Source: an uncultured Prevotellaceae bacterium (GTDB taxonomy: Bacteria; Bacillota_I; Bacilli_A; RFN20; CAG-288). Taken from it: a stretch of DNA of 64,000 bases. Both the position numbers and the translations under genes were made by a program. The stretch lies in the NCBI GenBank assembly GCA_963653505.1, contig CAVJWL010000002.1, forward strand, positions 2,638 through 66,637. Reading direction: 5' to 3'. This document shows positions 1,402 to 63,565 of the stretch, piece by piece. Numbering within the stretch: position 1 is the stretch's first letter; each line of letters begins with the position of its first letter. The notes under the pieces were generated by a model. The model saw only the letters and a list, made by a program, of their open reading frames with translations, did not search any database and had not been told where the DNA came from.

Positions 1402-5767
<4,366 letters not shown>

Positions 5768-5832
5768 ATTTAAATTCTCACTATCAAAATTATATCAAAA
5801 TAACATATGTACAAAAAGTCTTGACATATTCA

Positions 5833-7236
5833 TCATTGAATTTTTGCTTTGATATCACTCTTTTTGAACACACGTTTTCTAGCGACAAAATACAGACAAA
5901 TACCATGAGCAAGAGCGGTGATAAGCCAAGAGACTGGATAGGCCAAATATAAATACATCATCTGATGCATCTCAGGAAGCATGAAGATAGTGAAGACATA
6001 AACAACACGAACAACACAAATTCCTACAAAAGAAACCAAGGCAGGCAAATTAGATTCTCCTAGTCCTCTTTCAAGTGAGGCTAAACAATCAACAAGGGCC
6101 ATTAAGATATGAGAGCCTAAATTTATAAACATACATAGTTGAGCTATTTCCATCGCCTTGTTGTAATATTCCATATCATCACCTGGATGGATGATAAGTC
6201 CAAGAAGTGGAACTCTCAACAGAATTTCAATACCGGATAATAAAGCATCGACACAAACGCAGTAGATGATACACCACTTCATCGATTTTTTGATTCCATC
6301 TTTATTCTTAGCTCCGATATTACTAGCGACAAAGGCAACACCAGCTTGGGAGAAAGCATTAGCACCATTATAGACAAAGGCGATAAGTCTTTGAGCACTA
6401 GAATCACCAGTGACAGTGCTATCACCGAAAGAATTGATATGTGATTGAATGAGAACATTAGCTAAATCAAACATCATCGATTGAATACCAGCTGGAATAC
6501 CAATCTTGAGCATCTGAATGGTTTCTACTTTATAAAATTTTAAATTTTTGAATTTAAAACTGGCAAATTCTTTACCTCTCATCAAAGAGATATAACATAA
6601 AATTGAACTTACAACTTCAGAACTCACTGTTGCAATGGCAAGTCCTTTAACTCCGAGATTAAATGGGGGAAGAACTAAGACAATATTGAAACAGACATTG
6701 AAAATACCGCCGATAGTGAGATATAAAAATGGTTTGAATGAATTTCCCATACCTCTTAAAGAAGCTGCTGAAAAATTATAGAGCAATAAGAAAGGAACGC
6801 CGATGAAATAAATGACCATATAATCAGTCGACATATCGATCATATTTTCACTAGTTCCCATAAGCTCTAAGAAAAATCTCGAACAAAAAATTCCGATAAG
6901 AACAAGAACAACACCTGAGATAAGAGCTAATAAAGTGGAACTTCCGATGATTCTTTCTGCCTTATCTTTATCTTTTGCACCAAAAGCATTTGATACGACA
7001 ACATTGACACCAACAGAAAGTCCGATAAATAAATCGACGATCAAAGAACAAATAGAACCAGTAGCTCCAATCGCTCCAACTGCCAAATCAGAAACTAAAA
7101 ATCCACAGATGATATAGTCAGCCAAATTAAAAGATAATTGTAGCCAACTAGAAAGCATCAACGGAATTGCAAATATCGCCATATTTTTGACAATATTATT
7201 GCCTGTCATATCAACTTTTGTTGAAATTTTCTTCAT
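5833..7236 (-). CDS. MATE family efflux transporter
   Basis: 12-TM-like hydrophobic profile and MATE-like sequence. I place the start at internal Met MKKISTKV (ATG at 7236), which is preceded by GAGGTG. The ORF-track start at 7335 adds 33 residues that are unlikely to be real. Confidence 0.75.
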   Translation of the reverse strand: MKKISTKVDMTGNNIVKNMAIFAIPLMLSSWLQLSFNLADYIICGFLVSDLAVGAIGATGSICSLIVDLFIGLSVGVNVVVSNAFGAKDKDKAERIIGSSTLLALISGVVLVLIGIFCSRFFLELMGTSENMIDMSTDYMVIYFIGVPFLLLYNFSAASLRGMGNSFKPFLYLTIGGIFNVCFNIVLVLPPFNLGVKGLAIATVSSEVVSSILCYISLMRGKEFASFKFKNLKFYKVETIQMLKIGIPAGIQSMMFDLANVLIQSHINSFGDSTVTGDSSAQRLIAFVYNGANAFSQAGVAFVASNIGAKNKDGIKKSMKWCIIYCVCVDALLSGIEILLRVPLLGLIIHPGDDMEYYNKAMEIAQLCMFINLGSHILMALVDCLASLERGLGESNLPALVSFVGICVVRVVYVFTIFMLPEMHQMMYLYLAYPVSWLITALAHGICLYFVARKRVFKKSDIKAKIQ

Positions 7237-53551: not shown

Positions 53552-56500
53552 ATGATCGACAAGGAATATATCAAAATAAATTTAGCAACAAGTAAAACCT
53601 TCTCTTATTTAGAGTATCATACCGACTCCATTATCAAAGTAAATAATCCAAATGTATATTATACCTCTTTTTCGTTTGTTCAAAAAATCGAAATCGACAA
53701 TCAAACTGAAAACGATTATCAAGATTTGATAATCCATTTTGAGTTTTCAAACAATATATTTAAGAGTGAAGATTTCCATATCGGATTCACACCAAAAAGA
53801 AATAAATATCTGATAAAAATCGATCCAAAAATCAAGATAGATGACACAAGACTATATAACATCAACGGAATCTCATCTTGCACAATCTTTATCTCTTTAA
53901 GAGATCCAAACAATAACACTAAAGAATTGTGTTCAAATACAAAAACAATCAGCATCCTTCCATTCAATCAAGCGACTAATGACATCTATAAAGCACCTTT
54001 ATTATTTTCAAAATACTGCATCACAGATTTCTCACAAATAATAAATATCCAACATGCAGCCAATAATGAAAAAGCAAAATTGAATGGATTTGAAACAGAT
54101 TGTATAATCGGATATCAAAACGAAGATACAAACGAAATCATCAAAGAAGTAACTTCGATATATAGAGCCATCCATAACACTGGAAATATTACTTATTCAA
54201 ACCCACCGAATTCAAGTGAATTAGTTCAAAACATCAGAATGCCAAATACAGTTTTAAAAACCAAACTTGGAACTTGTTTAGACATATCATTGTTATTCTG
54301 TTCAGCCCTTCTTCAAGTCGGACTTCATCCGATATTGATTTTGACTCAAGGTCACGCCTTTGCTGGATGTTTTTTACATGACTATGATTCTTTCAACGGA
54401 TATTATGAAACGAATCCAAATGTCATCTTCTCCGATGCAGTAAGCCAAGAAAAAAACATCATTCTTTTTGAATGCACAACAGCCACAAATAATTCTTCAG
54501 TACCATTTTCTGAAGCAATGAAAATAGCAAATGAAACATTGAGAGCATATCGTGGATTCTTTATAGCTATTGATATCTATATGGCTCAACACTCCATCTT
54601 CAAACCTATTCCAATAGCAAATGATGATGGCAATGTCGATTTCACAATCCCAATGACTAAATTAAAAGAAGAAGAACTCGAAGAAATCGAAGAATATCAA
54701 GGAACCCCAATAGCCGAAGTAGATACAACTGATCGTTTCACAACTTGGGAAAAGAAATTATTAGATTTATCTACATCTAATAAATTGGTAAATTTCCGAT
54801 TTTCAAAAGATAATTCCAACCATTCAATAATCATCCCACCAAATGGAAAAGGAAAAGAAATCTTTGAGTTTTTAAAACACAAAGATGGAACCTTTACACT
54901 TTCAAATATCAAAAACGTATTGCAAGATAATGAAGGTAATATTGGAAATATTGAAAGTGAAATATTTGAAAAAGTAGCCTCAAATCAACTTCAAAAAGGA
55001 ACTCTTCTTATGACAGGAACTGTCAAAACAATGAAGAGCTTAATAAAAAAAGATAATGAATCAAGAGAAGAAACAGGCTCCCCAACCCTCTACTTATGCA
55101 TCGGTTTATTGACTGGAAACGATTCCAATGGAAGAAGCAATAAAGAAATTAAAGCCCCATTTTTATTACTGCCAATAAAAGTTAGCAAAAATAGATACGG
55201 AGATGATTTCACCGCTACCTATGACATTGAAGAAATGATGATAAATAAGACATTCTTCGAATACTATAAGATGAAAAAAGGCAGTGATTACGATAATCTC
55301 TACACCGTTTCATCCCACAACCAATTTGAAGACATCATCGCTTCATTAAAAGAGAATCACAGCGGTGATATAAAAGTCGATGAAAATGTTTGTTTCATCG
55401 CAAATTTCTTATTCACTCATATGGTAATGTGGCAAGATATCATCGATAGAAAAGAAGTCTTAAGAAAGAATGTCATCATCCAATCACTTTTGGAAAACAA
55501 ATCACTTATCAACGATGATAAAATCCAAGTAGACAATGTCGATGAATTAGATACGATGAAAGATTTTGCAGCACCATTACCTTATGATTCAACTCAACTG
55601 AGAGCGATAAGAGAATGTGCTAAAGGAAATTCGTTCATTCTAGATGGTCCTCCAGGAACTGGAAAAAGTCAAACGATTGTCAATATGATTGTCAACTCTT
55701 TCTATAATGGAAAGACAATACTTTTTGTTGCAGAAAAACAAGCCGCTCTTGAAGTAGTCAGACAAAGATTAGCAAGTTTAGGCTTAGATCAATTTGTCTT
55801 GCAACTATATTCATCAAAGACGAACAAGCAAGCTTTTTTCAGTCAACTATCCAAGGCGATGGATTATGGAAAAAGAAGCTCTGACGAAGATTTTTTAACA
55901 ATATGCGATAACATCGAAAAAGAAAAGAAAATCATAAACGATGAACTTAGAAGGTTACATTCACACAAAAAGCAATTCTATTCATTATATGAAGCAATAA
56001 CTAGAGAATTAGCAACTTCAGAAATAAAGCTGAATTTTGATATTTCACAAGAATTTTTAAGCGATTATAATTCTGAAAAAGATGTCAAAATCAGAAATAT
56101 CATTCATCGAATAGAAAAAGTGAACAGTGAATTCGATGGAGAAAAAATTGAAAACTATCTTTCAATTATCAATTTCAAAAGATACACATTCAATGACCAA
56201 AATACTCTAGTCACATCTTACACAAAGCTTTCTAAAAATTTAATTGAATTAAAAAATAAATTCGAACAACTAAAAGAAACTTTGAATGAACCAAGCTTAC
56301 AATTAAAAATCAACAATGTGGAATTCATCATCGGAATATTAAAACTATTGATTGAAAAAGAAGTCAAAATCGATTGTTTTTCAAAACCTGATTTAGAAAC
56401 ATATTTCAACAATATGAATGTTGTAATGCCTAAAATTTCAACACTTGCCAAATTAGAAAGTTCCATATCTAAAAAATACAATATCCACGGAATCGAACAA

Positions 56501-59383
56501 GTAAATGGAAGCCAAGTAAAAGAAACATTGAAGAAAGGAACCAACATCTTTAACAAAGGAAAAGCAAAAAAAGAAGCAATCAAATTGCTCTCTCCAATGC
56601 TTTTGAACACAAACGATATATCAAACGAAGAAATAAATGAGGCATGTGACATTGCAGATGAATACAATTCATTAAAATCTGAAATCATAAAAGATAAATT
56701 CAACATCGCTGCATTCTTTGGTGAATCTATCTTAGACTCTCTTTCAAACTTTGATACTTATTACGAGATTTATAACAACACCTATGAGCTCTATAAATTG
56801 ATTCTTCACGGGGATGAAAAAATATTCAATCGCTTATACACAGTAATAAAAGGTGCTTCCCCCTTTGCTCTTCCAAAAATAAAAGAAGCATATAAAGTCT
56901 TCAGTTCATCCCATAATAACTTCGAAGCCGAATTGAACAAAATCATTAAAGTTCACCCACTTGATTTATCGGCATTTGTTGAGCAAGATTTCATCGATAC
57001 ATATCAAGAAATATGTACATTATTCATCGATGAAGAAAATCAATACAAGATAAATCAATACACAAAATTATTATCTGACTATGAAGAATTAGAAGCCATC
57101 GGTCTTAAGGACTTAGTAACTTTAATTAAGAAAAAAAGCATACCATTAGGTGAACTAGAAAAGACATACGAACACAATCTATGCCACGCGTTTGTAATAA
57201 CATATTTTGTCACCGATGAAGAAAACAACGATTTCGATGCTAATACCTATGAAGAAGAAATTAATAAATACCAAGAGTTGATTAAAAAATACAATTCCTT
57301 ATGCGTAGGTGAAACCATTGAAAAAATCACTTCAAAATTTGAAGATCCAGAAATAAAAAGAAGTACATCAACTCCTATAGGAGCTTTAAGAAAAATCTGC
57401 ATGAGCTCCGGAAAAGGAATATCGATAAGAAATACTCTAAACAAATATGAAGATTTAATCAGAATGTATTTCCCATGTTTTTTGATGTCCCCACTTGCCG
57501 CCGCACAATATCTAGATGTCAACTCTAAAAAGTTCGATATTGTCATCTTTGATGAGGCTTCACAAATACCAACTTCAGAAGCAGTTGGACCAATTGCTAG
57601 AGGAAACTCTTTAATTGTAGCTGGTGATCCTCAACAGATGCCACCATCAGATTATTTCTCGGTCGGAAGTGAAACAGATGAAGAATCATTAGATGGATCT
57701 GAGACATTACTTGCAGATGCAGAATCTCTCTTAGATGATTGCATAGCTATAGATATGCCAAGAATCAGATTAGCATTCCATTACCGTTCAAAACACGAAT
57801 CACTGATAAGATTTTCAAATAGAAATTTCTATGGAGGCAACCTCTTCACCTTCCCATCAACTGATAATTTGACATCCCATGTATCTTTCATCCATGTAGA
57901 TAGTAAAACTAAGAAAAAAGGGAGTGAAATCTCAACTGAAGAAATTCAAACAATACTCGACGTATTAAAACAAATCCTTGAGAATCCACAAACAAAAAAT
58001 AAATCAATCGGAATAATTGTCTTCAATTCTTCTCAACAAGAAAAACTTGAAGATGAAGTGGATACATTCTTAAACAAGAATCCAGAATACATAAAATTAA
58101 CTCATTGGCAAGAAGAAGATTCCAATAAGAAATTATTTGTTAAGAATCTCGAAAATGTTCAAGGAGATGAAAGAGATATCATCATCATGTCAATCGGATT
58201 TATGAAAGGACATGATGGGAAAGCTCAAATTAACGGTCCACTAGCTTTAGCAAAAGGTGAAAGAAGATTGAATGTTGCTGCAAGTAGAAGTATCGAACAG
58301 ATGATTGTTGTTTCCACAATCTACTCAAGTGATATCGATGAAATAGGAAAGAAAAATCAAGGTTCTAAAAACTTAAAAGATTTCTTAAGGTTTGCTGAAA
58401 ATTCTGATAGATTCGTTTTAGATCAAAATGATGACTCACCAAACAAAGATTTAGCATATTTCATAGCTAAAGAATTGAAACAAAAAGGATATGAATGCGA
58501 TGTATCCGTAGGTTCAAGTGAATTCAAAGTGGATTTAGCAGTTAGAAAGAAAGATAAAAAAGAGTACATTCTCGGAATTCTCTTAGATGAAAAACCATTG
58601 AATGGAAATGTATCATGTAGAGATAGATTCTTCGTAGAACCGATAATCCTAAAAAATTTAAAATGGAAAGTATTGAGAATCTACACTGTTTTATTCCTAA
58701 GATATAAATCAAGAACCATCAAAAAAATAATCGAAATGATTGAAAGTGTAGGAAATGAAGAAATAGAAAATACAACTTTATATATCCCGCCAGTCATGAC
58801 AGAACATCATATTTCACAAAAAGATTTTGGAATAGTCCAATATAAAAAATTGAAATATGAAGTCCAACCATTAGGAGATGACTTCAATTTTGAAAAAGGA
58901 AGGTTCTATAATGAAATATTAGAATTTATCCAAAAGCTTATTGAACTAGAATATCCGATTTCAAGAGAACTAATATTTGAAAACATCAAAGCAAAATTTG
59001 GAATAACAAGATTGACACAAAAATTAGCTTATGTCATCCTAAATCACGTTCAAATGATTGATCCAATCAAAACAAATGATTTTGAAGGAAGAATCTTCTA
59101 TTGGCCAAAAGATAAAGAAATCAAAGTTGAAAATTTCAGAGAGTCAGAAAGAGATATACTAGATATCTCTAAAGAAGAAATCATCAGCTTGATGAATTCA
59201 ATCATAAAAATTTACAAATCAATCGATAAAGAAGAATTGATAAGAGTGACATCAGAACAGATGAATATATCAATAATCACTGCAAAAACAAGAAGAAAAT
59301 TAGAATATGTCATTCATGAAGCAAGTGAAAATGATTTATTAGAAAACGGATTTCACGAAAGCAATTATTTTCAAATGAATTAA
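53552..59383 (+). CDS. giant multidomain protein: N-terminal transglutaminase-like Cys-protease fold + DUF4011-like + Upf1/DNA2-like SF1 helicase (AAA_11/AAA_12) + PD-(D/E)xK (DUF559-like) + DUF3320-like C-terminus
   Basis: 1943 aa with a strong RBS GGAGG. Putative TGase core LGTCLDISLLFCSALLQVGL...GHAFAGCFLHD (Cys/His/Asp). Helicase motifs GPPGTGKSQT (I), FDEASQ (II), VAGDPQQMPP (III), GDERD, RRLNVAASRS (VI). Nuclease-like ECDVSVGSSEFKVDLAV. Confidence 0.85.
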   Translation: MIDKEYIKINLATSKTFSYLEYHTDSIIKVNNPNVYYTSFSFVQKIEIDNQTENDYQDLIIHFEFSNNIFKSEDFHIGFTPKRNKYLIKIDPKIKIDDTRLYNINGISSCTIFISLRDPNNNTKELCSNTKTISILPFNQATNDIYKAPLLFSKYCITDFSQIINIQHAANNEKAKLNGFETDCIIGYQNEDTNEIIKEVTSIYRAIHNTGNITYSNPPNSSELVQNIRMPNTVLKTKLGTCLDISLLFCSALLQVGLHPILILTQGHAFAGCFLHDYDSFNGYYETNPNVIFSDAVSQEKNIILFECTTATNNSSVPFSEAMKIANETLRAYRGFFIAIDIYMAQHSIFKPIPIANDDGNVDFTIPMTKLKEEELEEIEEYQGTPIAEVDTTDRFTTWEKKLLDLSTSNKLVNFRFSKDNSNHSIIIPPNGKGKEIFEFLKHKDGTFTLSNIKNVLQDNEGNIGNIESEIFEKVASNQLQKGTLLMTGTVKTMKSLIKKDNESREETGSPTLYLCIGLLTGNDSNGRSNKEIKAPFLLLPIKVSKNRYGDDFTATYDIEEMMINKTFFEYYKMKKGSDYDNLYTVSSHNQFEDIIASLKENHSGDIKVDENVCFIANFLFTHMVMWQDIIDRKEVLRKNVIIQSLLENKSLINDDKIQVDNVDELDTMKDFAAPLPYDSTQLRAIRECAKGNSFILDGPPGTGKSQTIVNMIVNSFYNGKTILFVAEKQAALEVVRQRLASLGLDQFVLQLYSSKTNKQAFFSQLSKAMDYGKRSSDEDFLTICDNIEKEKKIINDELRRLHSHKKQFYSLYEAITRELATSEIKLNFDISQEFLSDYNSEKDVKIRNIIHRIEKVNSEFDGEKIENYLSIINFKRYTFNDQNTLVTSYTKLSKNLIELKNKFEQLKETLNEPSLQLKINNVEFIIGILKLLIEKEVKIDCFSKPDLETYFNNMNVVMPKISTLAKLESSISKKYNIHGIEQVNGSQVKETLKKGTNIFNKGKAKKEAIKLLSPMLLNTNDISNEEINEACDIADEYNSLKSEIIKDKFNIAAFFGESILDSLSNFDTYYEIYNNTYELYKLILHGDEKIFNRLYTVIKGASPFALPKIKEAYKVFSSSHNNFEAELNKIIKVHPLDLSAFVEQDFIDTYQEICTLFIDEENQYKINQYTKLLSDYEELEAIGLKDLVTLIKKKSIPLGELEKTYEHNLCHAFVITYFVTDEENNDFDANTYEEEINKYQELIKKYNSLCVGETIEKITSKFEDPEIKRSTSTPIGALRKICMSSGKGISIRNTLNKYEDLIRMYFPCFLMSPLAAAQYLDVNSKKFDIVIFDEASQIPTSEAVGPIARGNSLIVAGDPQQMPPSDYFSVGSETDEESLDGSETLLADAESLLDDCIAIDMPRIRLAFHYRSKHESLIRFSNRNFYGGNLFTFPSTDNLTSHVSFIHVDSKTKKKGSEISTEEIQTILDVLKQILENPQTKNKSIGIIVFNSSQQEKLEDEVDTFLNKNPEYIKLTHWQEEDSNKKLFVKNLENVQGDERDIIIMSIGFMKGHDGKAQINGPLALAKGERRLNVAASRSIEQMIVVSTIYSSDIDEIGKKNQGSKNLKDFLRFAENSDRFVLDQNDDSPNKDLAYFIAKELKQKGYECDVSVGSSEFKVDLAVRKKDKKEYILGILLDEKPLNGNVSCRDRFFVEPIILKNLKWKVLRIYTVLFLRYKSRTIKKIIEMIESVGNEEIENTTLYIPPVMTEHHISQKDFGIVQYKKLKYEVQPLGDDFNFEKGRFYNEILEFIQKLIELEYPISRELIFENIKAKFGITRLTQKLAYVILNHVQMIDPIKTNDFEGRIFYWPKDKEIKVENFRESERDILDISKEEIISLMNSIIKIYKSIDKEELIRVTSEQMNISIITAKTRRKLEYVIHEASENDLLENGFHESNYFQMN

Positions 59384-60698: not shown

Positions 60699-61370
60699 AT
60701 GAGAAAAGAAATAGATATGACGACATATATAAAAAGAAACCAGTACAATTGGTTTAGAACATTCGATGATCCAACCTATGGTTTTGATGTTGATATCGAT
60801 GTTGATGAAGTTGTCAGATTAGCAAAAGAAAGACATCAGTCTTTTTTTCCTTATTTTTATTACATAATCTTAAGAGCAGTATCTAAGGTAGATGAAATGA
60901 GAATGAGAGAAGTTGGTGGAAAGGTATATTTATACGATGTTATCAATCCAACCTTCACAGTGATGACAGATTATGGAGTCTATCAAAACGCCGGAGTAGA
61001 AATGGATTGGAATTTTGACAATTTCTATAAAAAAATCCGTTCAATAATTGACGAAGTAAAAAAATTACCACCAAGTGATAATCTAGATAGATTTCCAGTT
61101 TGCTCACAACCGAATTGTTTATATACAACCTGCATACCGATACTTTCATTAAAAGGAATGAAACACCCAACACCAAGTAAGAATCACGATTCGCTATCTA
61201 TCCCTCGCATTTGTTTTGATAAATACGAATTAAAAACCGATAAAAGATATCATCTTACATTGAATATCACAGTTTCCCATACCTTAGTTGATGGTTTCCC
61301 CTTAGCAAGATGTTTCAATTACATCAAAGAAGATTGTTTGAAAGCAAGAGAAATATTCAAAAACAACTAG
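60699..61370 (+). CDS. chloramphenicol O-acetyltransferase (CAT) family protein
   Basis: 223 aa, CAT-like throughout. The C-terminal catalytic region VSHTLVDGFPLARCF aligns to the CAT HHAVCDGFHVGRF motif with the catalytic His conserved. Confidence 0.7.
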   Translation: MRKEIDMTTYIKRNQYNWFRTFDDPTYGFDVDIDVDEVVRLAKERHQSFFPYFYYIILRAVSKVDEMRMREVGGKVYLYDVINPTFTVMTDYGVYQNAGVEMDWNFDNFYKKIRSIIDEVKKLPPSDNLDRFPVCSQPNCLYTTCIPILSLKGMKHPTPSKNHDSLSIPRICFDKYELKTDKRYHLTLNITVSHTLVDGFPLARCFNYIKEDCLKAREIFKNN

Positions 61371-61417
61371 ACAAAATTTAATTTCATAATCCATCATTTG
61401 TGAAGGAGATAAAATAG

Positions 61418-62593
61418 ATGGAAAAAGAAATTTTCAAAGGATATAAATTTAGAATCTATCCAAATAAAAATCAAAGCAGTTATCTGACTAAAATAATAGA
61501 TAGTTATCGATTTTTCTATAATCAATCAGTAACAGAATTGAATGAATATAAAGAAAAAAATATCGTTCCTTCAAAAGAACAATTATTAGAACATTTAAAA
61601 ACAATAAAAATATCAAAAGAAATAATTGATCCAAAAACTATATCTTTTCTTTTAAAAGAGGCAGTTTTTAATTCTTTTAAAAATCACGAAAAAGCTCAAA
61701 AAGATAATAAAAATATAAAATTTAAATCAAAATACAATAAAAATACAATTTCACTATTCGTTAAACAAATAAATTTTGAATTGAATTTTGAAAACAAAAC
61801 TATAAATCTATTCAATTTAAAAAGAATCAAAACAAGAGGTCTACAAGAAAACATTCATCCACAAAATAGAATATACATAACAAAAACATTAGATGAAAAA
61901 TATTTTATTTCATTTAATTGTAAAACAACTTATAAAATATTGGCACCACCAAAAGAGAAAAAAAGAATAGGCATCGATTTAGGATTAAATTCACTGATAA
62001 CTACAAGTGAAGGGAAAACAATTCTAAATGAAAGAATACTAGGAAGAATGCAAAATAGAATCTCAAATCTCCATAGGAAAATGTCGAGAGAGAAAAAAGG
62101 TTCAAGGAATTATGTAAAGACAAAAATAGCCTTACAAAGAGCATATGAAAAAGTAACAAATATAAGGAATGATTATCTAAATAAAATATCCTATAGAATT
62201 ATCAAAGAAAACACCTTTATAGGAATTGAAGACTTAGATATAAAAGCTATGGAAAAACGGCATCAAATATCAAAATCACTGATGGATGCATGTTTAGGAA
62301 TTATAGTCAAAGATTTAGAATATAAAGCATCATGGAATAATAGAGTTCTTGTAAAAGTGGATAGATATTTCCCATCTAGTCAAATATGTTCACATTGTGG
62401 ATATAAAAATAAAAAAGTAAAAGATTTATCCATAAGAGAATGGACATGTGAAAAATGTAATACCCATCATAATAGAGATGAAAATGCTGCAAAAAATATT
62501 TTAAAAGAAGCCTACAAAATAGGATTAGCAAATATAGGAATAAATAATGTTAGGATACAGAAAATAATAGATAATTTATTTTCTAATTATTGA
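61418..62593 (+). CDS. tnpB: IS200/IS605-family TnpB (OrfB) RNA-guided endonuclease
   Basis: 391 aa with RuvC-like motifs (IGIDLGL; IGIEDLDIK; NRDENAAKNI) and zinc finger CSHCGYKN...CEKCNTHHNRD. No tnpA is adjacent. Confidence 0.85.
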   Translation: MEKEIFKGYKFRIYPNKNQSSYLTKIIDSYRFFYNQSVTELNEYKEKNIVPSKEQLLEHLKTIKISKEIIDPKTISFLLKEAVFNSFKNHEKAQKDNKNIKFKSKYNKNTISLFVKQINFELNFENKTINLFNLKRIKTRGLQENIHPQNRIYITKTLDEKYFISFNCKTTYKILAPPKEKKRIGIDLGLNSLITTSEGKTILNERILGRMQNRISNLHRKMSREKKGSRNYVKTKIALQRAYEKVTNIRNDYLNKISYRIIKENTFIGIEDLDIKAMEKRHQISKSLMDACLGIIVKDLEYKASWNNRVLVKVDRYFPSSQICSHCGYKNKKVKDLSIREWTCEKCNTHHNRDENAAKNILKEAYKIGLANIGINNVRIQKIIDNLFSNY

Positions 62594-62703
62594 ATAAAAA
62601 GTAGGGATGCTATACCCGAGTTTATGTCTTGAAAGCTAAAAGCCCGATAGAAAGTTGATTAAATCAATCGACAGAACAAATACAAACCAGTTATTGCGAT
62701 TGT
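61418..62703 (+). mobile_element. putative solitary IS605-family (IS1341-like) tnpB element with 3' omega/reRNA region
   Basis: tnpB without a Y1 transposase. Boundaries are not determinable without left/right-end hairpin analysis. The 3' 110 nt after the tnpB stop show local stem-loops (GGGATGCTATACCC; GTTGATTAAATCAATCGAC). Confidence 0.4.
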
Positions 62704-63420
62704 TTAAACTTTTGTAGTTTCAATCGAACTGGATTTAAATTTTTGCTGTTTCTTTAAGGTTTTAGACCAATTTACAAAACCGTAAATATCATTAACTAAG
62801 AAGATGCATGAGGTAATAACGGTAGCGACATAATTGAAGTTATCCTTCATAGCAAGTGACCATAAGGTTATTAACACGATATCGTTTAACGCATAACCAA
62901 AAGCATAAAATCTACTTCTTCTCATTGTCAAATAAACAGCTAAAAAGCTTGTGAATACTGAGATTGTAGAAATTACTAAATTGTGTGTATTTAAACTTTT
63001 TAAAATAAAATAAAAAATTGTTGTTACAATTAAACCGATAAATGCAAATAAAACATATTCTAATGGCTTAAGTTCGTTAATTTCAACTTCATTAGAATTC
63101 GCCTTAGAATGATGTTTTATCCATGAAATCAAAGCAACAATTGCAATAGGAGTTGTCATGCCTAAGTATGTAATCATCTCACCGTAATATTTAGTTGAAT
63201 ACGAAACAAGGCCATAAAAAATCGAAAAAATAATTGTTGTCATCTGGCCAATCGAAGTTCCTTTAGAAACTAGCATAAGGGATGTGACTCCAATTAAAGA
63301 TGTCGCCAATTGCAAATAGTCAGTGTTTTTAAAAAAGAAAAAGCAAAATAAAATGACAGCTACAGACACGATGTACAAGCACCATTCAAAAATAGAGAAA
63401 TACTTTAAGATTTTTGTCAT
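62704..63420 (-). CDS. PnuC-like nicotinamide riboside transporter family membrane protein (tentative)
   Basis: 238 aa, ~7 TM helices with Trp-containing C-terminal segment IYGFVNW. The assignment rests on family-level resemblance only. Confidence 0.45.
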   Translation of the reverse strand: MTKILKYFSIFEWCLYIVSVAVILFCFFFFKNTDYLQLATSLIGVTSLMLVSKGTSIGQMTTIIFSIFYGLVSYSTKYYGEMITYLGMTTPIAIVALISWIKHHSKANSNEVEINELKPLEYVLFAFIGLIVTTIFYFILKSLNTHNLVISTISVFTSFLAVYLTMRRSRFYAFGYALNDIVLITLWSLAMKDNFNYVATVITSCIFLVNDIYGFVNWSKTLKKQQKFKSSSIETTKV

Positions 63421-63565
63421 AAAAAAACACCTCCATAAGATAGCCCTCTCAATCAGAGATGGTCACTTAAGCAAAGGCAAGTGTTCCCCACGCTTTGTGG
63501 CTAATAACTATATTTTCTATTATTTGAATTTAATTTCAAACTGAAAGTGCTTTTTTTGCTAAAAA

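Follow-up and report, generated by a model that had tools for sequence, protein, structure and literature searches.

A long-resident, apparently immobile tnpB with a conserved putative omega-RNA scaffold behind a CatA-like gene in uncultured gut Bacilli

Composition of the locus

The subject of this study is a tnpB gene of the IS200/IS605 family of insertion sequences (IS), together with a conserved non-coding block behind it that resembles the 3' part of an omega RNA. Both lie in a 64-kb stretch of DNA (64,000 nucleotides, henceforth the window) that is deposited as an uncultured Prevotellaceae bacterium and placed by GTDB among the Bacilli (GenBank assembly GCA_963653505.1, contig CAVJWL010000002.1, positions 2,638 to 66,637 of the forward strand). 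An earlier annotation of this DNA, henceforth the original prediction, had described a solitary, IS1341-like tnpB immediately downstream of a gene of the chloramphenicol acetyltransferase (CAT) family, and this description stands: tnpB is the only gene of its element at the locus and follows the co-oriented CAT-like gene at a distance of 47 nt (Table 1). The neighbours of tnpB in the window code for a helicase, a leucine-rich repeat (LRR) protein, the CAT-like protein, PnuC, and a phosphoribosyltransferase. No tRNAs were found around tnpB, and neither a second TnpB nor a second omega-RNA scaffold was found within the window.

Table 1. Features of the tnpB locus in window coordinates (SD, Shine-Dalgarno sequence; RE, right end of the element)
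Feature	Position	Strand	Remarks
CatA-like acetyltransferase gene, 223 aa	60699..61370	+	upstream neighbour; host-gene context, outside the element
Left edge of the element: conserved 47-nt spacer and leader between CAT-like gene and tnpB	61368..61417	+	
Left-edge motif T[AT][GT]ACA[AG]AA	61368-61376		overlaps the CAT stop codon
Left-spacer motif TCCATC	61390-61395		conserved
Predicted mRNA hairpin over the tnpB start codon	61380..61432	+	GAUGGA (61417-61422) pairs with UCCAUC (61390-61395); SD enclosed
SD of tnpB, GAAGGAG	61402-61408		
tnpB, 391 aa	61418..62593	+	
RuvC codons of tnpB	D187 61976-61978; E271 62228-62230; D354 62477-62479		
Zinc-finger codons C324, C327, C344, C347 of tnpB	62387-62458		
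Hairpin within the tnpB 3' end, AGAAAAUAA/UUAUUUUCU	62559..62584	+	probably a variable upstream omega-RNA stem
Conserved putative omega-RNA scaffold, 3' part, TAGGGATGCTATACCCGAGTTTATGTCTTGAAAGCTAAAAGCCCGATAGAAAGTTGATTAAATCAATCGACAGAA	62602..62676	+	doubles as RE; four helices; begins 8 nt past the tnpB stop codon; last helix GUUGAUU-AAAUC-AAUCGAC; ends in ...ACAGAA
RE-type hairpin	62655-62673		
Putative guide CAAATACAAACCAGTTATTG	62677..62696	+	flanking DNA just ahead of the convergent pnuC stop codon
Target sequence for the putative guide, CAAATACAAACCAGTT			
pnuC, nicotinamide riboside transporter	62704..63420	-	right-hand neighbour, outside the element; Pfam NMN_transporter, TIGR01528

Intactness of the TnpB protein

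The RuvC triad and zinc finger that had been recognized in the 391-aa open reading frame (ORF) were borne out by profile searches and alignments. Pfam domains HTH_OrfB_IS605, OrfB_IS605, and Cas12f1-like_TNB each exceeded the respective gathering score, at 38.5, 84.2, and 75.3 bits. The NCBIfam model NF040570 ("RNA-guided endonuclease TnpB family") requires 100 bits and gave 215.9; with the stricter "exception" model NF038281, the 294.5 bits obtained fall short of the 425 required. Residues 7-367 align with ISDra2 TnpB (PDB 8h1j/8exa) at an E-value of ~1e-50, with GIDLG, IGIEDL, and RDENAA opposite the catalytic motifs of the latter. In the clade of close relatives described below, the ORF is intact in all 16 proteins, and D187, E271, and D354 as well as the four cysteines of the CxxC...CxxC motif (C324, C327, C344, C347) are invariant throughout, so that the mutated RuvC site considered by the original prediction as the mark of a domesticated homologue is not what we found. 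All nine distinct sequences of the 90% cluster of this TnpB are likewise full length at 391 aa. By these comparisons, the ORF is a genuine and intact TnpB of the IS200/IS605 family.

The 3' end of the gene deserves separate mention. A reading in genetic code 4 (TGA as Trp) was discarded, since TGG is the Trp codon, the orthologue at locus L007 has TAG at the equivalent position, and the stop codons at L008 and L010 fall 35-44 nt ahead of the conserved scaffold core. TGA is thus a genuine stop codon for tnpB. AT-rich lineages carry a C-terminal tail, IGLANIGINNVRIQKIIDNLFSNY, that makes up the last 24 tnpB codons (62518-62590) and is found neither at L008 and L010 nor in ordinary TnpBs; with these codons, the ORF extends into the region that forms the variable hairpin upstream of the scaffold. 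In a phage database, blastn matched nothing but short stretches of generic TnpB genes (67-80% identity).

A fixed site shared by diverged lineages

A protein search placed this TnpB in a small clade with relatives at 94, 69, 68, 60, 60, and 45-43% identity, below which identity falls to the general TnpB crowd at ~40%; the nearest named relatives of the clade are Bacillales bacterium UBA4694 and Candidatus Enterosoma. On every readable contig of the clade, tnpB sits directly behind an orthologue of the same CAT-like gene. Synteny overlaps in the order helicase (1943 aa)-LRR(-)-[741 aa]-CAT-TnpB-[cellulase]-PnuC and varies locally by a cellulase gene between tnpB and pnuC, by inversion of pnuC, or by the 741-aa gene upstream of CAT. 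At L063 and L064, which carry a further variant of CAT, tnpB again follows after 47 nt, and no TnpB orthologue was seen in more than one genomic context, each being represented by one to three contigs. The several copies, variable sites, and presence/absence polymorphism of a mobile IS were therefore not what we observed among the compared loci.

Codon-level comparison gave dN/dS values of 0.15-0.33 for TnpB on all informative pairs, with synonymous-site differences that reach 0.8. Between the window and L004, dS is 0.19 for tnpB and 0.25-0.30 for CAT, LRR, pnuC, and helicase genes, and the GC content of tnpB follows that of its host (21-24% in AT-rich lineages and 42% in the lineage with 45% GC). 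Since the gene occupies the same site down to 45% protein identity and has co-diverged with its neighbours, the insertion is best seen as ancient and fixed rather than strain-specific, contrary to the recent event implied by the original prediction. All this portrays tnpB as a long-resident, vertically inherited gene under purifying selection. As an observation in its own right, tnpB is more AT-rich than its surroundings (23.6% GC compared with 30.9% for the window, and 14% GC at third codon positions compared with 27% in CAT), an offset that recurs in the GC-richer lineage (42% compared with 45%) and fits weaker constraint on codon usage or expression rather than recent foreign origin.

The CAT-like gene and the cargo question

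The original prediction had raised the possibility that the CAT gene travelled with the element. A recent IS605-family insertion into an accessory region that possibly brought along a CAT resistance gene would account for two adjacent, co-oriented genes 47 nt apart, but the CAT-like gene itself argues strongly against it. Its product has the general CAT fold and no more (Pfam CAT, 66.5 bits): the best NCBIfam CatA score, 77.2 bits for NF000491, compares with a cut-off of 270, and the scores for CatA_like_1, 2, and 3 are far below their cut-offs. The catalytic-type motif SHTLVDG (H194, D198, G199; H-x3-D-G) is invariant, identity among the compared loci amounts to 77-98%, and dN/dS is ~0.03, in keeping with what is probably a housekeeping acyltransferase rather than a resistance gene.

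An alignment scan for the CAT-like protein with one genome per species uncovered 28 further loci at 48-78% identity in uncultured Bacilli, with titles that include Candidatus Enterosoma, Candidatus Enteromonas, "uncultured Mollicutes", and Bacillales bacterium UBA4694. None of these 28 loci has a TnpB within 5 kb (tblastn) or an omega-RNA scaffold (covariance model). The closest among them, L021 from UBA4694, is syntenic throughout (helicase, LRR, 741-aa gene, CAT, cellulase, CxxCxxCC protein, DUF1846) and shows a GC-rich terminator hairpin and a small antisense ORF after CAT in place of tnpB. This ORF of 167 aa lies at 5713-6216 on the minus strand, between the CAT and cellulase genes. The CAT tree unites L021 and the lineages that carry TnpB in a single clade, whose three-way split is unresolved, which means that tnpB was either gained once just after the L021 lineage had branched off or gained once earlier and then lost from L021.

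Upstream of CAT, nothing is conserved between lineages and no conserved element end is seen, so that CAT does not lie between the ends of an element, nor does it co-occur with tnpB as a passenger gene would. In L007, L008, L010, and L021, CAT begins 3-16 nt downstream of the gene for a protein of ~741 aa without any Pfam domain, and in some lineages it is fused into an operon with that gene. Because 28 genomes, the syntenic L021 among them, have the CAT-like gene but no TnpB, CAT is an ancestral host gene rather than cargo, and tnpB inserted alone and long ago, which is the scenario that the original prediction had itself named as the alternative to a shared journey. A recent insertion with CAT as passenger also fails to explain the co-divergence of tnpB with its neighbours and is, all things considered, hardly credible. 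This removes a false lead: the "CAT" next to tnpB is no mobile resistance gene, and it does not qualify as a curated chloramphenicol acetyltransferase either. In a small sample, a search for empty alleles within species (exact CAT protein and second CAT variant) returned contigs that every time carry tnpB.

Omega-RNA scaffold and putative guide

Stem-loops in the ~110 nt past the tnpB stop codon had been taken as a sign of an omega-RNA-like 3' region. The folding energy of this stretch as a single sequence is not better than that of shuffled controls (z = -0.14), so the evidence for an omega RNA rests on comparative data, which do reveal a covarying block of 75 nt (62602-62676). It is 99% identical between the window and L004 and still 73-79% identical to the orthologues at 45% protein identity with saturated synonymous sites. 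A four-helix structure pairs at 95.6% across the orthologues, with compensatory changes at six pairs (e.g., AGCU/AGC(U/C) versus GGCC/GGCC, or GUUGAUU/AAUCGAC versus GUCAAUU/AAUUGAC versus GCC/GGC); its covariation score was reached by none of 500 shuffles, and sliding the partners against each other abolishes the pairing.

The covariance search suggested by the original prediction thus had a divided outcome: no omega-RNA family of Rfam matched, with noise only at permissive E-values over 5 kb and in a zoom on the 3' region, while covariance model R1 matches once per tnpB locus and nowhere else in the 383 kb searched. The more distant relatives L012 and L020 have scaffolds that are recognizably related yet different. 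A 31-nt pattern of the omega-RNA core had no matches in JGI metagenomes and an 18-mer had none in viral contigs; two matches of the core 18-mer in JGI metagenomes lie in GC-rich contigs and were rejected as chance. At the equivalent position upstream of the scaffold, inside or just after the end of the ORF, each lineage has a hairpin of unrelated sequence, and the one at 62559..62584 is probably an upstream omega-RNA stem of variable sequence.

These data also speak to the idea that the locus is a neutral relic, i.e., an IS fragment that is dead but still undecayed and serves no function at any level. In favour of a relic speak the immobility of the element, its lack of a known target, and the higher AT content of tnpB relative to its neighbours (23.6% GC against 30.9%). 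However, every branch has a dN/dS far under 1, the ORF and catalytic residues are preserved in 16/16 clade proteins, and the non-coding scaffold remains 73-99% identical with compensatory changes while synonymous differences reach 0.8, all of which makes this explanation quite improbable. With RuvC triad, zinc finger, and scaffold intact under purifying selection, the ribonucleoprotein (RNP) of TnpB and omega RNA is instead probably still a working RNA-guided DNA endonuclease.

Conservation stops sharply at 62676, after ...CAGA(A/T), and the next 20-30 nt are lineage-specific. In this putative guide region, 5 of 30 positions differ between the window and L004, about the synonymous rate, and L008 and L010 are essentially unalignable. 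A scaffold that overlaps the RE and is followed by a flank-derived guide corresponds, as far as sequence comparison goes, to the anatomy of TnpB omega RNAs; the guide length of 16-20 nt is an assumption taken from characterized TnpBs. The putative guide has no second match in the window and none in any orthologous locus. Viral matches to its 18-mers share no common 5' motif, extend by at most one base past the 18-mer, and were dismissed as chance, so that a phage-defence reading of the guide finds no support from viral matches. The candidate target-adjacent motif (TAM), proposed from sequence, is the left-edge motif T[AT][GT]AC (TTTAC at L008 and L010).

The junction between scaffold and guide shows a peculiarity at L005 and L006, where the first 9 guide positions contain 3 differences, among them an indel (L005 2084-2095, L006 7258-7268). 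The two loci are otherwise near-identical, with a tnpB dS of 0.06, 76/76 identical scaffold positions, and the same ~15 bases past the differing guide positions. These differences may reflect homopolymer slippage or a local hot spot at the junction.

Left edge and leader of tnpB

In the alignment, the conserved block at the left starts at TAGACA/TTTACA even where the CAT stop codon lies 8-25 nt further upstream. Given that nothing is conserved upstream of CAT, the left end of the element lies within the 47-nt spacer between CAT and tnpB. This spacer also contributes to a hairpin that would occlude the start codon, enclose the SD or pair with it, and is predicted in every lineage from paired sequences that differ (z between -1.9 and -4.0). 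In the window, UCCAUC/GAUGGA and an outer stem of 5'-AAUUUC / 3'-GAAAUU enclose the SD; the corresponding pairings are GUCCAUUU/AAAUGGAC at L007 and CGUUUAUCA/UGAUAAAUG at L008 and L010. The leader hairpin is thus likely a translational throttle on tnpB, according to the predicted folds. A promoter was considered for the same motif and rejected: the -35-like TAGACA/TTTACA is not accompanied by a conserved -10 element at workable spacing, and the promoter reading was therefore dropped in favour of the start-site hairpin. No terminator-like site was predicted between CAT and tnpB or past tnpB; read-through from the CAT-like gene is therefore likely, and expression of tnpB would combine read-through transcription with throttled translation.

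A probable immobilized element and the alternatives to it

On balance, we consider it somewhat more probable than all other explanations together that the locus is an old, immobilized tnpB-only (IS1341-type) remnant of an IS200/IS605 element that comprises TnpB and its omega RNA and is inherited vertically as a single copy. It would go back to a single insertion into the 3' intergenic region of the CatA-like gene, made in the ancestor from which a small clade of uncultured, AT-rich gut Bacilli descends. tnpB would be transcribed at least in part by read-through from CAT, and the hairpin that pairs the start codon would hold its translation low. From the 3' end of the transcript, an omega RNA composed of the scaffold and the upstream stem within the ORF would be cut, by homology to ISDra2, with 16-20 nt of flanking DNA from 62677 onward as guide. 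Since this guide derives from the flank and drifts with it, the RNP would recognize only the element-free version of its own locus, i.e., TAM plus flank. Cleavage of vacant sites by TnpB as a drive for transposon maintenance is described in two studies (10.1101/2023.03.14.532601; 10.1101/2023.11.20.567912), and a guide that drifts and has no other target in the compared loci fits such a homing or retention activity. Long-term selection without detectable mobility would, in any case, mean that selection still favours either the retention activity or some additional use at host level.

Several points weigh against this account. An inverted-repeat scan of the 47-nt left spacer and of the DNA ahead of CAT turned up no left-end (LE) counterpart to the RE hairpin, so that of the two terminal hairpins for which the original prediction had proposed a search, only the right one was recovered; the canonical tnpB-only relative L012, in contrast, has near-identical LE and RE hairpins, CCCATTGGCTTTAGAC(G/A)ATGGG. 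As predicted from the outset, no Y1 TnpA is encoded among the neighbours of tnpB, and a crude scan of the window for HUH motifs was negative. With neither LE nor TnpA, excision as the source of the canonical TnpB target therefore looks impossible, and its apparent loss undercuts a pure retention role and leaves the purifying selection unexplained. Our view of the genome is the 64-kb window, and copies, omega-RNA-only elements, or a TnpA may exist beyond it. The orthologues were ascertained via intact proteins, by which decayed copies could be missed; the species-representative genome collection, in which an exact-peptide scan with the TnpB protein found no relatives, holds no TnpB-bearing genome of the clade. 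The contigs of L063 and L064, both from short-read assemblies, end 221 nt and 72 nt inside tnpB, respectively; these breaks may come from strain variation or an unrecognized repeat, and other assemblies cross tnpB unbroken. Lastly, the ends of the omega RNA, the TAM, and cleavage itself are predictions.

The limits of the window bear most directly on the idea that the element is still mobile as a non-autonomous IS, mobilized in trans by a Y1 TnpA encoded elsewhere, with TnpB acting canonically after excision. An intact scaffold and RE-type hairpin would suit such an element, solo TnpBs within IS200/605-like ends are reported as mobilizable by Altae-Tran et al. (PMC10691335), and our inspection covered 64 kb of the genome only. 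Against it stand the same insertion site in every lineage down to 45% identity with one genomic context per orthologue, the lack of an LE hairpin resembling the RE hairpin where canonical L012 has both, and a left end squeezed into 47 nt that also hold the SD hairpin. We regard continued mobility as unlikely.

The apparently broken cycle of selfish retention, with no LE hairpin or TnpA found, also lends some weight to a different alternative: a nuclease or regulator exapted by the host and kept by host-level selection for a job independent of the drifting flank guide. Possible jobs are processing or regulation of the CAT-tnpB transcript, service to omega RNAs or guides encoded elsewhere in the genome, or action as a toxin or defence nuclease. 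A single-copy, immobile, and intact gene with dN/dS of 0.15-0.33 across lineages with saturated synonymous sites would be expected of such a protein, as would conservation of leader and scaffold far above neutral expectation, and fixed TnpBs with intact RuvC are treated in the literature as candidate exaptations (PMC10691335). However, there is no conserved guide and no consistent downstream gene (pnuC, cellulase, or inverted pnuC), no target was seen in the compared loci, viral matches are attributable to chance, the 383 kb searched hold no extra scaffold copies, and CAT functions without TnpB in 28 genomes. We therefore view only as a tentative possibility, well behind the immobilized remnant, that these reduced-genome gut Bacilli harbour an exapted nuclease-active module expressed from an acyltransferase operon under a start-codon-occluding leader. 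Such a module would need no fixed guide for its function; its candidate roles would be to keep its own locus from being replaced or deleted, to serve guides encoded elsewhere, or to process and regulate RNA, and if real, it would be a nuclease-active counterpart of the nuclease-dead TldR exaptations discussed below.

Comparison with known systems

Among characterized systems, ISDra2 TnpB (PDB 8H1J, 8EXA) shares the three-domain architecture with full-length alignment, the RuvC D-E-D triad, and the zinc finger, as well as a structured scaffold at or after the 3' end of tnpB that is followed by a flank-derived guide. Unlike ISDra2, the locus has no tnpA and no recognizable LE hairpin and is a single, fixed, and vertically inherited copy; protein identity between the two appears low by eye from the alignment, and the scaffold has no match in Rfam or in distant relatives.

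TldRs resemble the locus as TnpB derivatives that have lost mobility, are inherited vertically beside a host gene, and retain a guide RNA. They carry conserved guides that are aimed at a promoter. In addition, their RuvC site is inactivated (10.1101/2023.11.30.569447). Our locus keeps its catalytic residues and zinc finger unchanged throughout the clade, and its guide varies between lineages without a match in the compared loci. Because the nuclease site is intact and the guide is not conserved, the locus is not a TldR.

The closest match in kind is a class already described by Altae-Tran et al. (2023, PNAS, PMC10691335), namely non-mobile TnpBs of unknown function that have an apparently active RuvC and are fixed in lineages; the examples given there are the mini-TnpBs of Halobacteria as well as TnpBs of Bacillus thuringiensis and Bifidobacterium longum. 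Being immobile, catalytically intact, and lineage-fixed, our locus falls into the same category and, set beside these examples, constitutes an additional, well-resolved case, for which omega-RNA scaffold, guide drift, and leader hairpin are documented.

IS200 of Salmonella and other enterics is likewise an ancient and essentially immobile member of the same IS family. It encodes TnpA only, whereas the element described here encodes only TnpB and omega RNA. The leader of the IS200 tnpA mRNA has an SD-sequestering stem-loop (PMC4513863) that is analogous to the tnpB leader hairpin, and a more recent study presents IS200 as an ancestral genome component whose RNA has gained host roles (10.1101/2024.06.26.600842).

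TnpB genes are among the most abundant genes of prokaryotes, and most TnpB clusters look immobile. The locus offers a clean natural case for asking why nuclease-competent but immobile TnpBs stay selected, with one ancient insertion, a syntenic relative of the empty type, and at least four diverged lineages in which purifying selection can be measured on the protein, the RNA scaffold, and the translational leader alike while the guide drifts freely from one lineage to another. It is thus a concrete system to set selfish retention against an exapted host tool, and the compact TnpB of 391 aa and its scaffold from an AT-rich host are also material for profiling of TAM and activity.

Neighbouring genes

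Further upstream, the window encodes a protein of 1943 aa (53552-59383) with DUF4011, AAA_11/AAA_12 helicase, and MTES_1575 domains. It had been assigned to an accessory helicase region, an assignment that did not hold: the gene is syntenic in L004, L006, and L021, with 85-96% identity in relatives, 63% in L021, and a dN/dS of ~0.07. Because it is syntenic and conserved in related genomes, the helicase belongs to the core of the clade.

On the other side of tnpB, an element of ~65 nt, TAGCCACAAAGCGTGGGGAACACTTGCCTTTGCTTAAGTGACCATCTCTGATTGAGAGGGCTA, lies on the minus strand at 63435-63497, right in front of the pnuC start (63420). It precedes pnuC at L004, L005, L007, and L011 as well and is near-invariant in all lineages, including those in which the orientation of pnuC to tnpB is reversed; Rfam has no family that matches it. 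Several hairpins and pairing with the SD are possible, and its four sequences are too conserved to display covariation. It may act as a riboswitch or leader of the nicotinamide riboside transporter gene.

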